A DNA stretch of 64,000 bases from Octopus vulgaris (GCA_951406725.2 OX597822.1:24490001-24554000), one strand, 5' to 3'. Positions 18,445-58,281 are shown, counted from the stretch's first letter. The notes: generated by a model from the sequence alone, not told the origin. Translations and numbers: made by a program.

Positions 18445-18845
18445 AAAGCTGGCAGAAACGTTAGCATGCTTAGCGGTATTTCGTCTGCGTTACGTTGTGA
18501 GTTCGAATTCCGCCGAGGTCGACTTTGCTTTCATCCTTTCGGGATCGATTAAATAAGTACCAGTTACGCACTGGGGTCGATGTAATCGACTTAATCCGTT
18601 TATCTGTCCTCGTTTGCCCCCTCTGTTTAGCCCCTTGTGGGTAGTAAAGAAATAGGTATTTCGTCTGCCTGCCTCTACGTTCTGAGTTCAAATTCCGCCG
18701 AGGTCGACTTTGCCTTTCATCCTTTCGGGATCGATTAAATAAATACCAGTTACGCACTGGGGTCGATGTAATCGACTTAATCCATGTGTCCGTCCTTGTT
18801 TGTCCCCTTTATGTTTAGCCCTTTGTGGGCAATAAAGAAATAAGA
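18445..18845 (+). mobile_element. tRNA-derived SINE (family A), internally duplicated
   Basis: GCTGGCAGAA.CGTTAG head, GAGTTCAAATTCC B box and core GTCGACTTTGCCTTTCATCCTTTCGGG; about 180-bp body repeated; similar multimers at about 32055-32430, 36210-36600, 37121-37505 and 45457-45845, plus many monomers. Confidence 0.85.
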
Positions 18846-19987: not shown

Positions 19988-20648
19988 TACATGCATAAGC
20001 GCAGGCGTGGCTATGTGATAAGAAGTTTGCTTCCTAACTACATGGTTCCGGGTTCTGACCCATTGCATAGCTCCTTGCATTTACCTCCTCATGCCGTTAC
20101 TGCATTTTCCTCACCTTGGAGAAAAACTCCACGTGGAGCTACCGCCAAGCGTTTTGGTATAGACGTTTTGGCGTCGTTGATTCGACGCTGACTTGTTTGA
20201 CATCATATATTTTCATGTTCTCTCGTTTTAATGTCTCTCGTTCTCTCTCCTTTTTCTCTGTGTGTGAGCATATTTCTCTTTATGTATATGAGGAAAGGCA
20301 AAATGTTCAATTAATAAATGTTCCTCACATCTTTCCTATTTGCATGTACATGTTTCTGCGCGCGCGCGTTTCCTTTCTGTGCCAAAAACTACAGTCGCCC
20401 AAATAGGTTCAATGTCCAGTCAGCCGTGTCAAATCATCAGCGTCCAAACAGCCTCGCCCAGCTGTCTCATTCTGTACCAGATTATTCTCCCAATTCATGG
20501 CATCAATGAGTTTCGGATTAGGACACCCATATAAGTTGGGTTTTCTTCGTTTCGACGTGGATTTTTTTCAATTATTTTTTTTCACTACGCCTTTGGAAAT
20601 GATGGTGGGCAGCTTTTTATGAAAAAAGTTTTGAAAATCTATTATTTT

Positions 20649-21052
20649 ATTTACATTATTTACATTTGGCGGATATTTGTCCTCATCTGATATACCCTCC
20701 AGCCTTCGTCAGGTGTCTTGGGGAAATTTCGAACCTGGGTTCTCATTCCTAAGGTACTTTTCGATGTTGTTGTTATTATTATTGTTGTTGTTGTTGTTGT
20801 TATTGTCGTTGTTATTCAGGTCACTGCTTGGAATCGAACTCGGAATCTTGGGGTTAAGAGCGCGGGTTACTAACCCCAAGTTTCCGAGTTCGATTCCAAG
20901 CAATGATCTGAATAATAATAATAATAATAATAATCATAATAACGATAATAATAATAACGATAATAATAACAGTAATAATAATAATGATAATAATAACAAT
21001 AATAATAACAATAATAATAATAATAATGATAATAATAACGATAATAATAACG

Positions 21053-21104
<52 letters not shown>

Positions 21105-21318
21105 CAACAACAATAACAACAACAACAACAAGAATACCAAAAAATACCTTTGGAATGAGACCCTAGGTTCGAAATTTCTCCAAAACACCTGATGAAGGCT
21201 GGAGGGTATATCAGCCGAAACGTGGTGTTAACAACAAACAAGATGAGGACAAATATCCATCGAATGTAAATATTGTAAATAGCGTACATAATTCCTCATC
21301 TCTTCAATATAGAACTGT
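20649..21318. mobile_element. Inverted-dimer element with tRNA head, (AAT)n and hammerhead (locus 1)
   Basis: Two oppositely oriented arms; near-perfect 12-bp TSD ATCTATTATTTT (20637-20648) / ATCTATAATTTT (21319-21330). Confidence 0.85.
21184..21229 (+). ncRNA. Minimal type I hammerhead ribozyme motif (Penelope-like, palindromic stem III)
   Basis: AACAC-CTGATGA-A-GGCTG-(10 nt)-CAGCC-GAAA-CGT-G-GTGTT; stems I and II pair fully; N17 is G here and U in the sister copies. Confidence 0.75.
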
Positions 21319-21432
21319 ATCTATAATTTTGTTTACCGCTAGCCGTTACCTCCCACTACCGATTTTGGCGGGTTTTTTTTACACTATGCCCTTAAATACC
21401 ACAGGAAAAGCTTTTTCAGTAAAAGAAAATTT

Positions 21433-32013: not shown

Positions 32014-32759
32014 TAACCAGGCAAGTTCACATTGTTGATATTAAAAATTCTGTTAAGGCGGCGAGCTGGCAGAATCGTTAGCACGCCAGGCGAAATGCTT
32101 AGCGGCATTTCGTCTGCCGCTACGTTCTGAGTTCAAATTCCACCGAAATCGACTTTGCCTTTCATCCTTTCGGGGTCGATAAATTAAGTACCAGTTACGC
32201 ACTGGGGTCGAGATAATCGACTTAATCCGTTTGTCTGTCCTTGTTTGTCCTGTCTGTGTTTAACCCCTTGTGGGTAGTAAAGAAATAGGTATTTCGTTCG
32301 TCTTTACGTTCTGAGTTCAAATTCCGCCGGGGTCGATAAAATAAGTACCAGTTGAGCACTGGAGCCGATGTAATCGACTTAACCCCGCTCCTCCAAAATC
32401 TCGGGCTTTGTGTTTATAGTAGAAAGGATATTAGAAATTCTGTTATGATGCTTTGAGGTTATATTTTCTATTAGATAAATCGTTTTTATTAGCCGGATTG
32501 TTCCCGTACGCCACAATACTTGTGTGTCAGATATGTAATGCTCACATTGTCCCTTCACTTTATCGATTGTTATTGTTGAATATGTTGTGTTTACTCGGGT
32601 GTGTATATGTCTATGTGTGTGTGTGTGTGTTGTTTGTGTGTGTGTGTGTGTGGTTGTGTGCATGTATGTGCTGCTGTGTGCTTGCTGTGGAAAGTGCTCA
32701 CGTACAGGTGTCAATGTGTTTGATCGTATACACATAGAACGCTCACCGCAACAAACACC

Positions 32760-36060: not shown

Positions 36061-36598
36061 TGGCTCTGGCTGACGGATGAGAATCTGAAATGAAAGCCCG
36101 AAGCCAAAACGATAAAATATGGCACCAGTGAAGAACTGGGGTCGGGCAATCGACTAACCCATTCCCCTTAAAATTTTTAGGCTTGTACAAAAATTTGAAA
36201 CAGTTATTATTGAGCTGACAGAATCGTTAGCACGCCGGGCGAAATGCTTAGCGGTATTTCGTCTGCCGCTACGCTCTGAGTTCAAATTCCGCCGAGGTCG
36301 ACTTTGCCTTTCATCCTTTCGGGGCCGATTAAATAAGTACCAGTTACGCACTGGAGTCGATATAATCGACTTAATCCGTCTGTCTGTCCTTGTTTGTCTC
36401 CTCTGTGTTTAGACCCTTGTGGGTAGTAAAGAAATAGGTATTTCACCCGTTGCTACATTCTGAGTTCAAATTCCACCGAGGTTGACTTTGCCTGTCATCC
36501 TATCGAGGTCGATAAATTAAGTACCTGTGAAACACTGGGATCGATAAAATCGACTAGTCCCCCCCCCAATTTCAGACCTTGTGCCTATATTAGAAAGG

Positions 36599-36687
<89 letters not shown>

Positions 36688-37006
36688 GGCGGCGAGCAGG
36701 CAGAATCGTTAGCGTGCCGGGCAAAATGTCGAGCGGTATTTCGTTCGTCCTTACATTCTGAGTTCAAATTCCGTCGAGGCCAATTTTACCTTTCATCCTT
36801 TCGGGGTCGATGAAATAAGTACCAGCTACGCATTAGGGTCGATGTGATCGACTATCCCCAATTCCACAAATTCCAGGCCTCACAAAATTTCCCATATGCG
36901 CGCGCATGCACGCATACACGCTTACACATACACACATATCTATGCGTACACACACATCCATGGAAGCACACACAGAAACATATACATGTAGACAGAAAGA
37001 GTGAGA

Positions 37007-37680
37007 TTATTTACATTCGACGGATATTTGCCGTTATCATGTTTGTTGTTAACACAACGTTTCGGCTGATAAACCCTCAAGCCTTCTTCAAGTGTCTTGG
37101 GGAAATTTCGAACCTGGGTTGTCGACCTGAGTTCAAATTCCGCCGAGGTCGACTTTGCCTTTCATCCTTTCGGGGTCGATAAATTATGTACCAGTTACGA
37201 ACTGGGGTCGATGTAATCGACTTAATCCGTGTGTCTGTCCTTGTTTGTCCCCTCTGTGTTTAGCCCCTTGTGGGTAGTAAAGAAATATATATTTAGTAGT
37301 AAAGAAATATATGGTTAGCGGTATTTCGTCTGTCGTTACGTTGTGAGTTCAAATTCCGCCGAGGTCGACTTTGCCTTTCATCCTTTCGGGGTCGATTAAA
37401 TAAGTACCAGTTACGCACTGGGGTCGATGTAATCGACTTAATACCTATGTCTGTCCTTGTTTGTCCCCTTTGTGTTTAGCCCCTTGTGGGTAATAAAGAA
37501 ATAGGTATTTTTCGATGTTATTATTATTATTATTGTTCAGGTCACTGCTTGGAATCGAACTCGGACTCTTGGGGTTAGTAGCCCGCGCACTTAACCACTT
37601 CGCCATATACCCACGCGCATATGGCGTGGTGGTTAAGAGCGTGGGCTATTAACAATAATAATAATAACAACAACACCCAC

Positions 37681-37741
<61 letters not shown>

Positions 37742-37932
37742 TCGAAAAATACCATAGGAACGAGAACCCAGGTTCGAAATTTTCCCAAGACACCTGATGA
37801 AGGCTGGAGGGTATATCAGCCAAAACGTTGTGTTAACAACAAACAAGATGAGGACAAATATCCGTCTAATGTAAATAACGTAAATAATGTAAATAATGTA
37901 CATAATTCCTCATCTCTTAAATATAGAACTGT
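37007..37932. mobile_element. Inverted-dimer element with tRNA head, (AAT)n and hammerhead (locus 2); SINE A multimer nested at about 37121-37505
   Basis: Perfect 13-bp TSD AGAAAGAGTGAGA (36994-37006 / 37933-37945); head-to-head tRNA-like heads centred near 37612; hammerhead motifs at 37051-37096 (-) and 37789-37834 (+). Confidence 0.88.
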
Positions 37933-39234
37933 AGAAAGAGTGAGAGACAAGCACTTTCCCTCTCTTCAAACAACTAAAGAAAAATACACTAATACACATA
38001 AACAGAGAGAGGGGGAAGAGAGAGAAAGGAGATGAAAGAGAGAAGAGAGAGAGGAGAGAAGTGGAAGCGGAGAGGAAGAGGAGAGAGCGGCGAGAGAGGG
38101 AGAGAGAAACACTAAAACATCTGATGTAAAATAAGCCAGCGTCGAATTAACAACGCGCCAAATAGACAACGCGAAAACGCCCGTGCCAAAACATTTCACA
38201 CCCAACAGAAACGAAAGAGTGAAGACTTGTTGCATAACCATTGCTCAATATTCAGGACAAAACACTAAATTGCCACATTTCAACAAATTCCTTTACTCAA
38301 CCTACAGTTCCTATTACCTTGAACTAATTTCATGCGTCGAGTATACTACGCTGTAAATGTCAAAAAGTTAGAGGTCTATATTAGTTCGCTGTGGTGTTGA
38401 AAGTTATATCTGTTACAGAGTATGAAGTACAGATCTCTAACATAATTAGGACATACACCAAAGTTCAGTTCTGTTTTATCTTGTATATATTTTGCCTACG
38501 TAATTTGAATAGACGGTAAATGTAGAACTTTCTCACTCTCTGTATGACATATCGGTCATTTAAGGAAGCAAGCCCCTGCTATAACGTTACACTGGATGAC
38601 ATCGATTTCGTTTCTAACATAAACTCTAATTTTCTTTTTTTTTTTATATTTTATGTATATCATATCGGTTTCCTGTTTCTCCGTTCTCGCTTTTTTTTCC
38701 TTCTTTTTTTTTATAGCTTCGCTAGTAGAGGAATGGCGATACCAATGACCTTTTCGCAGAAATTCCGAAACTGGAAAAGGGCAAGACAAAAAAAAAAAAA
38801 AGAAAAGAAAAGGTAAAAAAACAGAAAGAACATGACGAGTGGATCATCTATCCATTATTTTTTTATGCGCCCATTTCAAGCCTAACCAGGCTCATGGGTC
38901 CGTTTTCCCGGTTTCTGTGGCGTACGTGTTCTCTCCAGCTGGACGGGACACCAGTCCATCGCAGCGTTACTAAAGAAACAAGAAGAGAGAAAGCTGGGGC
39001 GAAAGAGTACAACAGGGGTTGCCACCAACCCCTGCCGAAGCCTCGTGGAGTTTTAGGTGTTTTCACTCAATAAACACACACAACGCCCGGTCTTGGAATG
39101 GAAACCACGATCCTACGACCGCGAGTCCGCTGCCCTAACCACTGGGCCATTGCGCCTCCACTATCTAGCCATACACGATCTAAATATTTTCAACGGAATG
39201 CTTTTCCTTCGAGTTTTATTATCAAGACTCATAT

Positions 39235-40799: not shown

Positions 40800-41600
40800 T
40801 GTCAAACACCTGCTGTCGCGTGTGGGAATCCGGCTACCAGCCGAATCCATTGTGAAGATTGCCCTGCCGCTCTCTTTTGGCCGGGAGGCGCAGGCAATTT
40901 TTATGTCTAGTGGCTGTAGCGAAAGAGGTAGTATATGGGCGACCCGTTTGAAAGTGCTAAAGACAGACACTTTTCTCTTTGGCCAAGCCCTCACCAACTT
41001 TTTCAAGTTTCACTTGAAAAGGAAGCTGAGGATGGAGAGGGGAGTGTTGCCTTGTAGCAAGTTTACATTATTTACATTTGACGGATATTTGTCCTCATCC
41101 ATCAAATGTAAATAATATAAACAATATATCCTCTGTGTGAAAAGTCTGGCTGCATACAATTGACAGCACAGTTAATTAAGATTTATTTAGTGAGTTCTAT
41201 TCAACACATGTTTACATGTGAAATTAGCAGAATCATTATTAACTTTAGATGGCTCGCAGGCGAGGTGAACAAATTAGTGAGAGAGATAGACTGGCAATAC
41301 TTCTACGCCACCAGCAGTCTTGGGAAGAGCTATCTGAGCGGAAAATTCGTTGATGTATTCAACGTCAAACTCGTGTTCGGCGTCAAATAGTTGACTGTCG
41401 TGGTGGTAACAGATTCGTGTAATAAATTTTGTGTTTATCTTTGTTTCTTAATATATATTTTTTCGGATGCAGCCAGACTTTTCACACAGGTACATAATTC
41501 CTCATCTTTTAAATATAGAATTGTAGCAAGTTTGTTGAAAGATAGGTGAATGTTGGAAGAATGACCAGTGTGAAAGGACCAATTCTGAGCGTGCACCTGT
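40800..41600 (+). mobile_element. Tx1/L1-like ORF2 C-terminal remnant, interrupted at 41065-41520
   Basis: W.TRLK...FFKFHLKRKLRMER..L...KF|VER* resumes after the insertion. Confidence 0.55.
41065..41520. mobile_element. Collapsed copy of the inverted-dimer element (locus 3) with a TA-type MITE (about 41130-41490) inside
   Basis: TTGTAGCAAGTTT repeated at 41052-41064 and 41521-41533; both termini of the family retained; MITE TIR CTGTGTGAAAAGTCTGGCTGCAT. Confidence 0.8.
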
Positions 41601-44958: not shown

Positions 44959-46160
<1,202 letters not shown>

Positions 46161-47590: not shown

Positions 47591-47699
47591 AGTATTAATA
47601 TATATATAATTACATATAATACAATATACATGTAATGCCACGATATTATGTAAGCTGTTATCAATCTGTACTGTCAATAAACGACTGAGTTAAATATTT

Positions 47700-48635
47700 T
47701 TGTGACATTTTTCTGTGACTTTTTTCTTGTAACTTTTTTCCTGTGACTTTTTCTGTGACTTTTTTCTTGTGACTTTTTTCTGTGACTTTTTCCTGTGACT
47801 TTTTCCTGTGACTTTTTTCTGTCACTTTTTTCTATGACTTTCTTCTGTGACTTTTTTCTGTGACTTTTTTCTTGTGACTTTTCTCTGTAACTTTTTTCTT
47901 GTGACTTTTTTCTGTTACTATTTTCTTGTGACTTTTTTCTTGTGACTCTTTTCTGTTACTTTTATCTTGTGACTTTTTCCTGTGACTTTTTTCTATGACT
48001 TTTTTCTGTGACTTTTTTCTGTGACTTTTTTCTTGTGACTTTATTCTGTGACTTTCTTCTGTGATTTTTTTCTTTGACTTTTTCTGTGACTTTTTTCTGT
48101 GCCTTTTTTCTGTGACTTTTTTCCTGTGACTTTTTTCTGTGACTTTTATCTGTGACTTATTTCTGTGTCTTTTTCCTGTGACTTTTTTCTGTGACTTTTT
48201 CTGTGACTTTTTTCTTGTAACTTTTTTGTGTGACTTTTTTATGTGATTTTTTCCTGTGACTTTTTCTTGTGACTTTTTTCTGTGACTTTTTGTGACTTTT
48301 TTCTGTGAACTTTTCTGTGACTTTTTTCTGTGACTTTTTTCTCTGACTTTTTTCTTCTGACTATTTTCCTAAAACTTTATTCTGTGACCTTTTTCTTGTG
48401 ACTTTTTTCTGTGACTTTTTCCTGTGACTTTTTTCTGTGACTTTTTTCTTCTGACTATTTTCCTAAAACTTTATTTTGTGACCTTTTTCTTGTGACTTTT
48501 TTCTGTGACTTTTTCCTGTGACTTTTTTCTGTGACTTTTTTGTTGTGACTTTTTCGTGTGACTTTATTGCCAGCCACCATAAATTAATTGTGACATTTTT
48601 TCCTGTGACTTTTTTCTGTGACTTTTTTCCTGTAA
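47700..48635. repeat. Minisatellite of about 13-14 bp units (TGTGACTTTTTTC[C/T])
   Basis: About 930 bp of degenerate tandem units directly 3' of the MULE ORF. Confidence 0.95.
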
Positions 48636-54063: not shown

Positions 54064-56934
54064 TCACTTGAGGTCAAGGGAGGCTTTGAACAAAGCGGTC
54101 GTCGGCATCTTCACCATCTCGTCTGGCAGCTTGTTCCACGGATCCGCAACCCGGACAGAGGAAGCTCCTCTCCTTCGATTGAGATGAAATCGTCGCAGGT
54201 AGAGCTTTTCGGAATGACCCCGCAGTCGACACCCTGGAGCAGGAGTGAAGAACAGCTCTTTCGAGAGGTTACACTTTCCGCTTATGATGTTGTGGGCGAG
54301 AATGAGATCACCACGGCGGCGGCGTTTTTCAAGAGAATAAAGGTCGAGCATCCTCAGCCTTTCTTCGTATGACAAATTTTTGAGACCATGAACCATGCGG
54401 GTAGCCAGCTTCTGGACTTTTTCGAGATGCTGTATGTCTTTGAGGAGGTAAGGAGAAGAGGCTTGAATCCCGTACTCCAATATGGGTCTCACCAGCGTGA
54501 CATAGAGTGGTAGGAATATGGCTGCTGAGAGCATTCCGAATGACCGTCGAATCAAGAACAGAATTCTGCGTGCTTTGTTGGCAGCATGGACGCACTGGGC
54601 CGAAGGCGAAAAGGAGGAATCCACCAAGATACCCAGGTCCTTTACCTGATCGGTCCTCTCCAGCAGCAGACGACCCGGCTCGAAATCAAGTTGAGTTGCA
54701 GGAGGAGAGCCGACAGGCAGATGACAGCACTTTGACACGTTCAGACACAGATCCCATTCGTTAGACCACTTCCAAATTTGGTGGAGGCATCGACGAAGAT
54801 CCTCTATATCACCGCGAGGAGCGACCAGTTTGATATCGTCGGCAAATAGAAGGGTGTGTTGCGTGAGGTCGTTGGGCAAGTCATTTATGAAGACTAAGAA
54901 CAATAAGGGCCCAAGCACTGAACCTTGAGGCACGCCACTGCTCGCACTGGAGACGTCGGACCGCGAACCATTAACTTGGACTTGGAAGGAGCGATCTGAG
55001 AGGAAGGCACCAACCCATCGTACAATATCCGGATGGAAACTATATGCTTGAAGCTTTACAAGTAATAGGCGGTGGCTTACCGAGTCAAAAGCTTTGGCAA
55101 AGTCCAGTAAAACGATGTCAACAGCATCACTAACATCGAGGATGCGCGTCACCAATTCTTCCATTACTAGTAAGTTGGTCAAGCATGATCTCTTCGGCAC
55201 GAAGCCGTGTTGGGAATCAGAGATAGAGGCTGTGTTTAGGAGGTGGAGCATCATACTTTTCTTAAGGATGGTTTCGAATATCTTGCTGATTATTGATGTA
55301 AGGGAAACCGGTCGGTAGTTAAGCGGGTCTTCGCGGCTCCCTTTCTTGAAAATTGGGCAGATTATCGCTGTTCTCCAGTCTGCAGGTATAACACCCGTCG
55401 CCAATGATATATTGAATAGACGTGTTAAGGGCTCGCAAATGACCGGAGCCAACGCTTTGATAACCCGTGGGTGTATGCCGTCAGGGCCGTGACCCTTGTT
55501 GACATCGAGGCCTTGAATAACACGTTTGACTTCGTCCCGCGTGATGACCAATCGAAGCATTGGAGATACCGATCTATCAAATGGAGGGGGTTCACGACCA
55601 TCATCTTGTTTGAAAATAGTTGAAAAAGCCTCGGCAAATAATTGACTCTGTTGATAAGGGTCCTCAATCGATACGCCTGTTGAGTCTACCAACGTTGCAA
55701 TCTGGTTGTTCAAGCGGGAATTCCGTTGGACATGGGCAAAGAAGGTTTTTGGATTGCTACTGGCATTTGCCGCGATTTTGTATTCATAACTGAAGCGTTC
55801 TTCCTTTTCAATTTTCACGGCTCGGTCTCGTTGAGTTTTGTACACCTCAAAAGCTGCAGTCGAATCCAGATTTTTTAATTCAGCCCAAGCAATATCTCTG
55901 AGTCGACGTTCTTGTTTAACCTTCTTCGTCACCCAGGGCTTGTGTTTCTTCTTCTTGGGAAGCCCAACGGGAACTGCCTGGTCAGTCAACCAGATTACAT
56001 ATGCTTTGAGGGATGACCATAGTTCGTCAACTGAGGACAACGTCATCAGGGATCGCCAGTCCAGAAGCGCGGAAGCCTCGGTTAGAATTTCAAGATTAAT
56101 TGCAGAGAAGACTCTACGTGGCAGCGAAGTAGTCGTGGGCGTAGAAAAAGTTGTGTGCATGACGAACTTCAGGACCGCATGATCACTCTTGGCAAGAGGG
56201 GCGCACACAGATACGTCTGACACTGATCTTGGATAGCGGGAGAATACCAGATCTAGCATAGATGGCTGCTGCCCAGACCGATGCCTTGTCGGATATTCAA
56301 CATGTTGCGATAGAAAACAATCTTCAGCCACGTCGAGAAGGGCCTGGCCGAACCGGGAAGATGTTGTACAAATTGATGCGGGCCAATCGATCGTGGGAGC
56401 GTTGAAGTCTCCTAGTACCAAACAGTCATGCGAAGCTGAAACGAATCTTATCGCTTCGAGTAAATGAGCATCGTCCTGGGGGTCGGCAAGAGGCGGCCTG
56501 TAGACAGCTAACACGGGCAGGCAAAACTCGGATAGGCTCAGCTTGCAATAGACGGCATCGAATTTTGTTGTAGGTTGAGCATTAGTGGGTAGAATACCGC
56601 TGGACGGTTTGTGCTCAGACTTAACATACACAGCAACACCTCCACCTCGCCTTTTTCCTCTGTCACATCTGAAAAGGACGTAGCCCTGCAGGTGGATTTC
56701 TGAGTCCTTTACTGCTAGAGTCAGCCAAGTCTCGGTGATAGCTATCACATCAGGGGAGTCACGTATGGCCAGTGTAAATAGTTCGCTGAACTTTGGGAAT
56801 AAGGAGCACGAGTTGGTATAGACGATGCTGAGCTGTGAAGTCTGAGGGGCGGGAGTTGGGGAACAAGCAGAATAAGGGGTATCAGAGATAGCATCGTTGA
56901 CGGGGGTATCAACTTCACTTCGATTTGCCCTCAC
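54064..56934 (-). CDS. LINE ORF2: apurinic-like endonuclease plus reverse transcriptase
   Basis: APE motifs IAITETWL, GGGVAVYV, LGDFNAP, LDLVF and SDH; RT motifs NYRPVSLTS, QHGF, LDFAKAFD, GVPQGSVLGP and FADD; 956 uninterrupted codons; no ATG before the end of the EN domain. Confidence 0.95.
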   Translation of the reverse strand: MRANRSEVDTPVNDAISDTPYSACSPTPAPQTSQLSIVYTNSCSLFPKFSELFTLAIRDSPDVIAITETWLTLAVKDSEIHLQGYVLFRCDRGKRRGGGVAVYVKSEHKPSSGILPTNAQPTTKFDAVYCKLSLSEFCLPVLAVYRPPLADPQDDAHLLEAIRFVSASHDCLVLGDFNAPTIDWPASICTTSSRFGQALLDVAEDCFLSQHVEYPTRHRSGQQPSMLDLVFSRYPRSVSDVSVCAPLAKSDHAVLKFVMHTTFSTPTTTSLPRRVFSAINLEILTEASALLDWRSLMTLSSVDELWSSLKAYVIWLTDQAVPVGLPKKKKHKPWVTKKVKQERRLRDIAWAELKNLDSTAAFEVYKTQRDRAVKIEKEERFSYEYKIAANASSNPKTFFAHVQRNSRLNNQIATLVDSTGVSIEDPYQQSQLFAEAFSTIFKQDDGREPPPFDRSVSPMLRLVITRDEVKRVIQGLDVNKGHGPDGIHPRVIKALAPVICEPLTRLFNISLATGVIPADWRTAIICPIFKKGSREDPLNYRPVSLTSIISKIFETILKKSMMLHLLNTASISDSQHGFVPKRSCLTNLLVMEELVTRILDVSDAVDIVLLDFAKAFDSVSHRLLLVKLQAYSFHPDIVRWVGAFLSDRSFQVQVNGSRSDVSSASSGVPQGSVLGPLLFLVFINDLPNDLTQHTLLFADDIKLVAPRGDIEDLRRCLHQIWKWSNEWDLCLNVSKCCHLPVGSPPATQLDFEPGRLLLERTDQVKDLGILVDSSFSPSAQCVHAANKARRILFLIRRSFGMLSAAIFLPLYVTLVRPILEYGIQASSPYLLKDIQHLEKVQKLATRMVHGLKNLSYEERLRMLDLYSLEKRRRRGDLILAHNIISGKCNLSKELFFTPAPGCRLRGHSEKLYLRRFHLNRRRGASSVRVADPWNKLPDEMVKMPTTALFKASLDLK

Positions 56935-58103
56935 TTCACTTTCCCTGTCAGCACTACAGCATGGGACCAGAGGTAGGACTTGATTATTTGTCCATCTTGG
57001 ATGCGTAAACCCTTCTCTCCCATTTGTTTCCTCATCTTTAGTTCGGATATTAGGTTTCTCCGGCGAATTCTCTCTCTCAGTGAGTATTCCTCGCGAAAAC
57101 CCATATTGGGGTCCTCCCAGGCATGCGTCTGAGCTCTGTTCAGAAAGACTGAAGCCTCCCGATCGGAAGAAAAGATCACCCTTATTGGGCGTGGTCTAGT
57201 ATCTGAGGTTGGGTTCGCTTGGAATCTTCCTAGCCGAGCGACCTTATGGATACTGACATTTTCGTTCACAGAGAACAATTCTCCTACTAAAATGGAAACA
57301 AAATTAATGTCTTCTTTTAGACGGTTTATGCCTGTATCACAGGTGGATTCAGCTTTACCATAAATTATTGCTGATCTTAAGTGGGCAAAATGTTCTCTAC
57401 TATGAGCTGCGGTATTCGATTCTTCATTGGATGATTTCGAAAGGGTGGTTTCATAGCCATCAGACTTATGTCGGCCTGTGGGGTCGATCGGAATGGGTTT
57501 TGTGGTCATAATTTTCCCGCCTGGTTTGGAACTGCACTGCCTCTTCTTCGGTTTGGGGGAGCACCACTCCCCCCCAGATGAACTCACAACGAGATCGTTC
57601 AGAATTGGTTGAGCAATGGCATTAATGGGAAGGACAAGTGAGGGAGAATCCAAACAGATTTTATCGTGATCAGGTTTCATAGCTAAATCTGCCCCACTGG
57701 AGTTTTGACTACGTTTCTTCTTTTGGGGAGAACAACGGTCTTCAGGTGGGTTTGAGTCTACGCTCCTCAAATTAGGTTGGGGAACCTCCGGGACCGAAAA
57801 GGCAGATGAGGAAGAATCCGCACAGGAACGATCATGTGCAGAAACGACCGCCAGTTCCTTCGCCTTCTTTGGCCGCTTCGATTTTGTTCCCTTCGGTTTG
57901 GACGTCTCCAGGGAAGAAATCAAGGGTGACTCTGCGTCAACAGGAGACTGTTTATTCAGTAAAAGAGCAACAACAGACTTTAGGTGCTCGACCTCTTGTT
58001 TGAGCAATAGCAACTGCTCGTTGAGCTGACTATTGGTAGGACCATCATCTTGATGAGAAGCCCTTCTTGCAGATCTCAGTTTCGATCCGTAGGTAGCTGA
58101 CAT
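56931..58103 (-). CDS. LINE ORF1 (coiled coil plus C-terminal RRM-like nucleic-acid-binding region)
   Basis: 390-aa ATG-initiated ORF; N-terminal heptads, AIIYGKAES and RLGR...RPRPIRVIF motifs typical of CR1 ORF1p. Confidence 0.88.
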   Translation of the reverse strand: MSATYGSKLRSARRASHQDDGPTNSQLNEQLLLLKQEVEHLKSVVALLLNKQSPVDAESPLISSLETSKPKGTKSKRPKKAKELAVVSAHDRSCADSSSSAFSVPEVPQPNLRSVDSNPPEDRCSPQKKKRSQNSSGADLAMKPDHDKICLDSPSLVLPINAIAQPILNDLVVSSSGGEWCSPKPKKRQCSSKPGGKIMTTKPIPIDPTGRHKSDGYETTLSKSSNEESNTAAHSREHFAHLRSAIIYGKAESTCDTGINRLKEDINFVSILVGELFSVNENVSIHKVARLGRFQANPTSDTRPRPIRVIFSSDREASVFLNRAQTHAWEDPNMGFREEYSLRERIRRRNLISELKMRKQMGEKGLRIQDGQIIKSYLWSHAVVLTGKVK

Positions 58104-58281
58104 GATAGATGGTTGACTAAAAGCAATCTTCTATGGGCTCTAGGACAAATCTGAGTTAAATCAGGAACAAAAAACAGCTGCAATCCTTGTAGGAGTAGGC
58201 AACAGCAGACAAAATCTGAGAGAGTTTGGGCTGAGCCGAATCACAATCCAGCAATACAGGGCACAGAAAGGAAGGGCCCTC

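Follow-up and report, generated by a model that had tools for sequence, protein, structure and literature searches.

A two-armed insertion in the octopus genome, read as a back-to-back pseudo-LTR pair of a Penelope-like element with a tRNA-like head

The insertion at positions 36994–37945 of the window, a 64,000-nucleotide stretch of the Octopus vulgaris genome, almost certainly consists of two pseudo-LTRs set back to back, each arm being one pseudo-LTR of an autonomous Penelope-like element (PLE). It is bracketed by a perfect 13-bp TSD, the left copy of which (36994–37006) is directly repeated at 37933–37945. The left arm, on the minus strand, has no tail; its outer part (37007–37124) is the 3' end of the pseudo-LTR body, 90% identical to the right arm over 118 nt and 85–88% identical to the autonomous copies L157, L161, L172, and L272, and it stops within a 9-nt repeat that is the usual end point of tail-less arms. 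Farther inward on the same strand, sequence comparison places the start of the body with an (AAT)n spacer (37503–37539) and a tRNA-derived head with a short leader (37535–37622; A box 37595–37605, B box 37551–37562). The right arm, on the plus strand, consists of a head remnant (37618–37648) with an A box at 37622–37632 and the B box deleted, an (AAT)n spacer (37650–37739), a body (37740–37897) that is the 5' end of the Penelope ORF, and a 35-nt Penelope 'tail' (37898–37932) present on this arm only, which in autonomous copies runs on into the ORF. A short palindrome lies at the junction of the two arms. The 13-bp TSD, the divergent arms, the A box in both of them, the loss of the B box from the right one, the (AAT)n spacers, and the one-sided tail had been described in a first-pass annotation of the window, and all of them were located. 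The start codon position of the right arm, 37760, here reads ACG; the frame is stop-free for 57 codons, remains open up to the tail end, and shows 49% identity over 47 aa with the N-terminal end of an 847-aa homologue, P0005 (E 9e-8).

The same annotation regarded 36994–37945 as one element. The two arms and the TSD stand, but a stretch of ~385 bp, 40% of the locus, was missed. This stretch (37125–37510, plus strand) is foreign to the element: it is a nested fragment of a different, very abundant SINE with many 80–93% matches in the window, its two pieces being joined via an 8-nt microhomology, and it appears to have landed in the left arm after the element had inserted. This second, commoner SINE is also found at 18466–18842, 32095–32385, 36244–36555, and 45486–45797, often as partial tandems with an (ATT)n end, and it gave 134 BLAST matches in the 800-kb blind sample described below.

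The autonomous element was recognized from an RT fragment adjoining an arm at one locus, a search with which gave 150 scored matches. Within 20 larger stretches around RT matches, most copies with the 3' end retained show the ORF end followed by the head and body. Fourteen ORF-end/head junctions, drawn from 11 loci, could be aligned and have the head 29 nt past the stop, and body and tail pass directly into the ORF in five of the 12 aligned copies. The order of the parts is the body (comprising the ATG, hammerhead, and tail), an 835-codon RT-endonuclease frame, the stop, 29 nt, the tRNA-like head, (AAT)n, and the body. The 835-codon frame is the majority reading of 37 fragments; it begins at the ATG in the body, which makes up its first ~55 codons, spans the hammerhead and the tail, and includes an RT with YVDD and an endonuclease at the C-terminus. 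One real copy can be read for 282 aa from the body ATG; no intact full-length ORF was found among the copies examined. A search for an autonomous PLE sharing the hammerhead and tail had been proposed in the first-pass annotation, and the element found shares the head and spacer as well; the suggested Penelope link, minimal hammerhead, and tRNA-type head are all borne out by its pseudo-LTR. The accompanying claim that the repeat is non-coding does not hold for its origin, the body being the start of the 835-aa ORF.

The Pfam model RVT_1 matches fragments of the family. The Pfam GIY-YIG model gave no match to the family's endonuclease fragments, and their motifs align with 22 full-length homologues. 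The peptide encoded by the hammerhead is kept, around an altered loop, in P0005, which is 55% identical; identity to the family's closest relatives is 55–68%. The linker between the RT and the endonuclease contains scattered single cysteines only and no zinc-finger-like arrangement. By the criterion given in the available part of PMC8557442, the absence of such a linker together with the C-terminal endonuclease makes the family fit the Penelope/Poseidon clade, a placement by domain layout. Two of six ORF-bearing copies tested have the inverted layout and 12–13-bp TSDs. Annotated proteins of two Octopus species carry the arm's peptide at 85–89% identity. The element's N-terminal peptide is contained in the annotated Octopus proteins P0001 and P0002, one of them named dystrobrevin beta, where the arms have either been exonised or been wrongly annotated as exonic. 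Two ORFs that belong to other, more distant PLE-like families (31–38% identical) were noted at L125:5022–6182 and L165:7909–8787, the former matching Pfam GIY-YIG.

The abundance of the family was estimated from a blind sample of 80 stretches of 10 kb, which held 17 insertions, a small set; scaled to the 2.80-Gb genome it corresponds to ~60,000 copies. Two divergent arms were present in 6 of these 17 insertions and the remaining 11 were of other kinds. A second sample comprised 68 consecutive exact matches of a 23-mer from the body, which occurs 6198 times genome-wide; two arms were seen in 43 of the 68, a sample biased to younger and two-armed copies. Over the two samples, with two duplicate loci dropped, there are 49 two-arm insertions. 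The tail is at exactly one end in 42 of them, at both ends in none, and undetected in seven, which bears out the first-pass picture of frequent inverted insertions tailed on one side. A TSD of at least 9 bp was found in 32/49 two-arm insertions (one being a TA run), as against 2/36 other insertions and 6/387 controls with swapped flanks. TSD lengths range from 8 to 17 bp across the two-arm insertions, and the duplicated sequences are 75% AT compared with 64% for the genome. Three loci within 1 Mb of C1 (L252, L253, and L256) have one common TSD and probably go back to a single insertion that was segmentally duplicated; all were counted for the TSD comparison, and one or two were removed for the counts of 5' ends and arm lengths. 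Duplicate and tRNA loci were left out of the ORF-to-head junction, cut-site, and arm-variant counts.

Two-arm insertions are 126–1056 bp long, only 3 of the 49 have two full heads, and the junctions between the arms vary from locus to locus. Of the 42 pairs with a tail, 17 have a tail-less arm that extends further 5' than its partner, 13 have a tail arm that does so, and in 12 the two are similar. The arms are therefore truncated independently, and the inverted pair is a product of integration, not a fixed dimer. The ends of the arms, as defined by the TSDs, lie at the tail end and inside the 9-nt repeat just before the tail, where the two start sites described for the anole element PAc (PMC11167929) would place them.

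It had been proposed that the repeat is a SINE/retrozyme hybrid in its own right, non-coding, mobilised by Penelope enzymes, and with a palindromic dimer as its mobile unit. This reading is highly improbable and already largely refuted: the body is the coding start of the autonomous element, the head, spacer, hammerhead, and tail are all part of that element's pseudo-LTR, and pairs with two full heads are as rare, and the junctions as variable, as described above. The excess of short copies over ORF-bearing ones (see below), the two arms in 43/68 motif-sampled insertions, and the existence of tandem body arrays (L021, L309) would fit such a hybrid. Retrozyme-like tandems were observed at L021:1501–2842, with six body units behind one head, and at L309, L217, L316, and L319; some tandem units consist of body, tail, and 70–120 nt of the ORF, and since these retain sequence beyond the tail they could be source copies. 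Head-to-tail tandems are a small minority of the family, and the copy at 36994–37945 is inverted. At L005:1–1257 and L026, head-less bodies directly follow unrelated LINE fragments whose 3' ends are (AAT)n, which suggests insertion into such microsatellites.

The origin of the second arm bears on the way in which the pseudo-LTR pair of the autonomous PLE is produced. In a fold-back model, put forward for rotifer Penelope elements in the available text of PMC3846280, one cDNA or an antisense RNA primes itself at a palindrome and copies itself. Short palindromes are present at several junctions, including that of 36994–37945, and arms of the same insertion share variants above chance: in 82 arm pairs they agree at N7 in 87% of cases versus 59% by chance, and they have 19 shared derived changes versus 6.6 by chance. 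This agreement would also be expected from a single template, from sources being active one at a time, or from conversion at a later stage. The two arms of 36994–37945, however, disagree at both subfamily markers, and 5' sequence is unique to the tail-less arm in 17 of 42 pairs and to the tail arm in 13; because a copy of one cDNA cannot exceed its template in both directions, fold-back is disfavoured and appears very unlikely. The arm lengths argue for two priming events over simple fold-back.

What the DNA shows directly is the layout, the sequence in common, three preferred ends, and the TSD, and from these a course of integration can be proposed in which the head-to-head pair is probably reverse-transcribed from an RNA that Pol III likely starts at the tRNA-derived head, as deduced from the DNA. 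Transcription would begin about 5–15 nt before the A box and would meet no T4 stop, so the resulting RNA would span the head, the body, the tail, and the ORF sequence beyond. The element's protein would cut both strands at AT-rich sites, the cuts lying about 12 nt apart, and each cut end would prime reverse transcription, with one start at the tail end and the other about 35 nt earlier; in the accessible part of PMC11167929, two reverse-transcription start sites bounding the tail are described in vitro for the anole element PAc. The two cDNAs would terminate independently of each other, in many cases where the RNA ends at its 5' side, and would then be joined head to head, often via a few shared bases, the outcome being an inverted pair with a one-sided tail and a TSD. 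Copies ending at the tail are probably dead ends, and the source copies would be those that retain ORF sequence past the tail. The same text on PAc reports that both strands are cut, that the hammerhead lies inside the ORF start, and that ORF sequence beyond the tail is needed.

The head is closest to tRNA-Arg, with 49/75 and 51/74 identities to two genes (z about 7) in a comparison with 27 tRNAs of six isotypes, which leaves the isotype tentative. Its A and B boxes fit the consensus in the family majority; neither Rfam (window and 10 loci) nor ARAGORN gave a match for the head, which is too degenerate. A putative tRNA-type promoter inside an autonomous element is an unusual feature. Among 50 arms reaching the head start, 34 have their 5' end within 20 nt there, and the rate of 5' ends per 10 nt is 0.34 at the head start, compared with 0.088 within the head and 0.036 upstream. 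Counts of exact 20-mers rise from 850 at ~60 nt upstream of the head to 5148 within it and 7092 in the tail, and drop to 85 at ~60 nt past the tail; by this measure the head exceeds the neighbouring upstream DNA sixfold, and short copies exceed ORF-bearing ones 6- to 80-fold. Short ORF-to-head junctions lie at the head start in five of eight cases, as expected from end-to-start template jumps. Six of 78 ORF-start pieces reach the upstream head, of which three begin at the head start, two begin inside the head, and one runs into the upstream ORF end; the ORF-start loci that run on into an upstream ORF end are L297, L263, and L265, two of them with deletions. Of 68 arms with a head, at least 16 continue beyond it on the upstream side, eight of them well into the ORF, which means that longer templates exist. 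A leader of 2–7 nt before tRNA +1 is retained at many arm starts and is counted in favour of a discrete start, since an RNase P cut would remove it. Family matches occur in public runs under five organism labels, eight runs, all of assembled contigs, having been compared and two insect metagenome rows of small share left out; under four other organism labels, contig breaks coincide with the head start and the tail boundaries, although the RNA origin is a guess for four of the runs and such contigs give neither start, strand, nor level.

The short copies could instead be 5'-truncated products of a Pol II transcript of the full element, the head being a fossil SINE in the 3' UTR at which ends pile up by RT stalling or RNA processing. 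This is unlikely, although depth drops gradually from 3' to 5' along the ORF as in ordinary truncation, some arms pass through the head into the ORF, the available part of PMC2377424 describes an internal LINE-like promoter in the pseudo-LTR of Drosophila Penelope, and Pol III reading is here deduced from DNA sequence. The number of 5' ends rises four- to ninefold within 20 nt, at the place expected for transcription starts from a type 2 Pol III promoter; the stability of the head fold is ordinary when compared with shuffles (z 0.36 and 0.71); the leader bases are retained; and the A and B boxes match the consensus in the family majority. T4 runs are, moreover, depleted in the family. The sense strand of the 2.7-kb majority sequence has none, versus 2.9 expected from synonymous shuffling (P 0.024), and 25 real family fragments have 20 versus 38.8 expected; these fragments are not independent, so the depletion amounts to one modest signal. 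No depletion is seen in 18 control retroelement ORFs (47 versus 46.2 expected) or in two other PLE-like ORFs, one of them at L125 (6 versus 4.8 expected). Together with the three of six ORF-start copies that begin at the upstream head start, the T4 depletion is the basis offered for a more far-reaching and distinctly doubtful proposal: the whole 2.7-kb autonomous element may be transcribed by Pol III from the upstream head, with T4 runs purged and with the hammerheads cutting the uncapped RNA and re-closing it into a unit that serves as message and template.

The hammerhead itself fits the minimal motif in the family majority. In the copy at 36994–37945 motifs are indeed present in both arms, as annotated earlier, but neither core is intact: that of the left arm (37051–37096, minus strand; N7 = A) is damaged by C3>U and a stem II change, and that of the right arm (37789–37834, plus strand), which lies within the coding frame, by G12>A. 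Stems I and II of the right motif are present in the predicted fold, and the predicted cut falls after 37829. Rfam returned no hammerhead match in the window and 10 loci, and a hammerhead descriptor search of the window found no intact motif. Preferential conservation of the core among copies, which the first-pass annotation had expected, was not observed: over 120 arms the non-reference rate is 0.034 in the core versus 0.046 in the comparison sequence, which is no real excess, although such conservation would not be expected of decaying copies. Apart from CpG changes, frequent variants near the motif occur only at N7, the one free core position, and at one base of loop II that has the behaviour of a mutation hotspot. 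Of 391 arm starts, 4 fall precisely on the predicted cut, compared with about 1–2 per nearby position, the neighbours being confounded by a palindrome, and the 5' ends give no clear mark of the cut.

Two further insertions in the window share the outer ends of the family and have their own TSDs, as had been claimed for 20649–21318 and 41065–41520, but their arms are incomplete. The first, at 20637–21330, has two arms, a 12-bp TSD with one mismatch, and the tail on the right; the heads are truncated on both arms, with B boxes only and A boxes absent. The second, at 41052–41533, consists of just two outer ends without head or hammerhead, and has a 9–13-bp TSD, 4 nt of which overlap the tail end. 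It encloses a 357-bp insert (41133–41489) with perfect 23-bp terminal inverted repeats, and no second copy of this insert was found among the loci examined. Elsewhere in the window, a young-looking LINE at 54064–58130 (minus strand) has an open frame of 1043 codons for APE endonuclease and RT domains, ahead of which lies a 399-codon frame that overlaps it, and a tandem array of a 13–14-bp unit occupies 47667–48461.

In the usual division of labour between SINEs and LINEs, the Pol III promoter resides in the parasite and the Pol II promoter in the host element. One octopus element seems to hold both roles, its end-repeat having spread to about 60,000 places, and a single family offers a traceable path from pseudo-LTR to SINE and to retrozyme-like tandems. 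The tens of thousands of two-arm scars constitute a large natural data set for the unsettled mechanism of PLE integration. If full-length reading by Pol III is true, the element would be a retrotransposon that codes for protein, depends on Pol III, and makes its own SINE, and both the translation of uncapped RNA and the purpose of PLE hammerheads would become directly testable. Annotation would mislabel the short copies of the family as SINEs.

The literature compared yielded neither a PLE whose promoter derives from a tRNA nor a SINE carried by a PLE; Repbase, Dfam, SINEBase, Ohshima and Okada 1994, and the supplements of bioRxiv 10.64898/2026.07.22.740005 lay outside the comparison and may hold the repeat. 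The available portion of PMC13282606 gives 190 Penelope-like families in an octopus and leaves hammerheads unmentioned, and in those of PMC4758252 and PMC4824008 octopus OR1/OR2 appear merely as CORE-SINEs. Like tRNA-derived SINEs, OR1/OR2 included, the family has an A/B-box head, a defined 5' end, a length of about 300 bp, and tens of thousands of copies; unlike them, it has the end of a PLE, not a LINE tail, at its 3' end, and its autonomous partner has the same head. It is not the separate non-coding unit, sharing only the 3' end with a LINE partner, by which SINEs are defined.

The likeness to known PLEs is extensive, as far as the accessible parts of the cited sources describe them. Inverted truncated copies, one-sided tails of 30–40 bp, TSDs of 8–10 bp, solo pseudo-LTRs, and pseudo-LTRs with an ORF start are on record for PLEs (PMC8557442, PMC3846280). 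With the endonuclease-bearing Drosophila virilis Penelope, Adineta Pen2a, and anole PAc (PMC2377424, PMC3846280, PMC8557442, PMC11167929) the octopus element shares one ORF of about 840 aa with an RT and a C-terminal endonuclease, a pseudo-LTR with the ORF start and a hammerhead, solo pseudo-LTRs, an inverted 5'-truncated copy, a one-sided tail of 30–40 bp, a TSD of about 9–13 bp, and AT-rich targets. The promoters known or proposed for those PLEs are of the Pol II type (TATA-less internal, or TATA/Inr-like), whereas the octopus pseudo-LTR has a tRNA-derived A/B-box head at which the short copies start. The family consensus of the hammerhead agrees with the minimal hammerheads of metazoan PLEs in all four additional marks listed in the available text of Cervera and de la Pena 2014 (PMC4209133), among them one base between positions 9 and 10.1, a G10.1–C11.1 pair, and a palindromic two-base helix III; a short helix I is also common to those hammerheads, and the predicted octopus motif differs just by the tRNA head before it.

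Outside the PLEs, the closest parallels in the cited sources, to the extent that these are available, are Schistosoma Sm-alpha/Sj-alpha (PMC6765202), in which a Pol III-type promoter stands beside a hammerhead (Sm-alpha), and animal non-LTR retrozymes (PMC7229834; bioRxiv 10.64898/2026.07.22.740005), which are likewise non-autonomous units derived from pseudo-LTRs and occasionally form tandem arrays. Sm-alpha and the retrozymes are mainly head-to-tail tandems, a type I hammerhead in each unit being characteristic of the class, whereas the octopus copies are mostly single or inverted, carry a minimal hammerhead within coding sequence, and have an identified parent element. A Pol III promoter derived from a small RNA and placed within a terminal repeat is also found in the TRIMp3 elements Cassandra, Helenus, and Ajax (Kojima 2024, PMC10886601). 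These are non-autonomous LTR elements, and the accessible part of the same paper argues that their autonomous partners need Pol II and are unlikely to share the repeat. In the octopus, by contrast, the autonomous element itself bears the repeat, and its arms are inverted or single rather than two direct LTRs with a PBS and a PPT.
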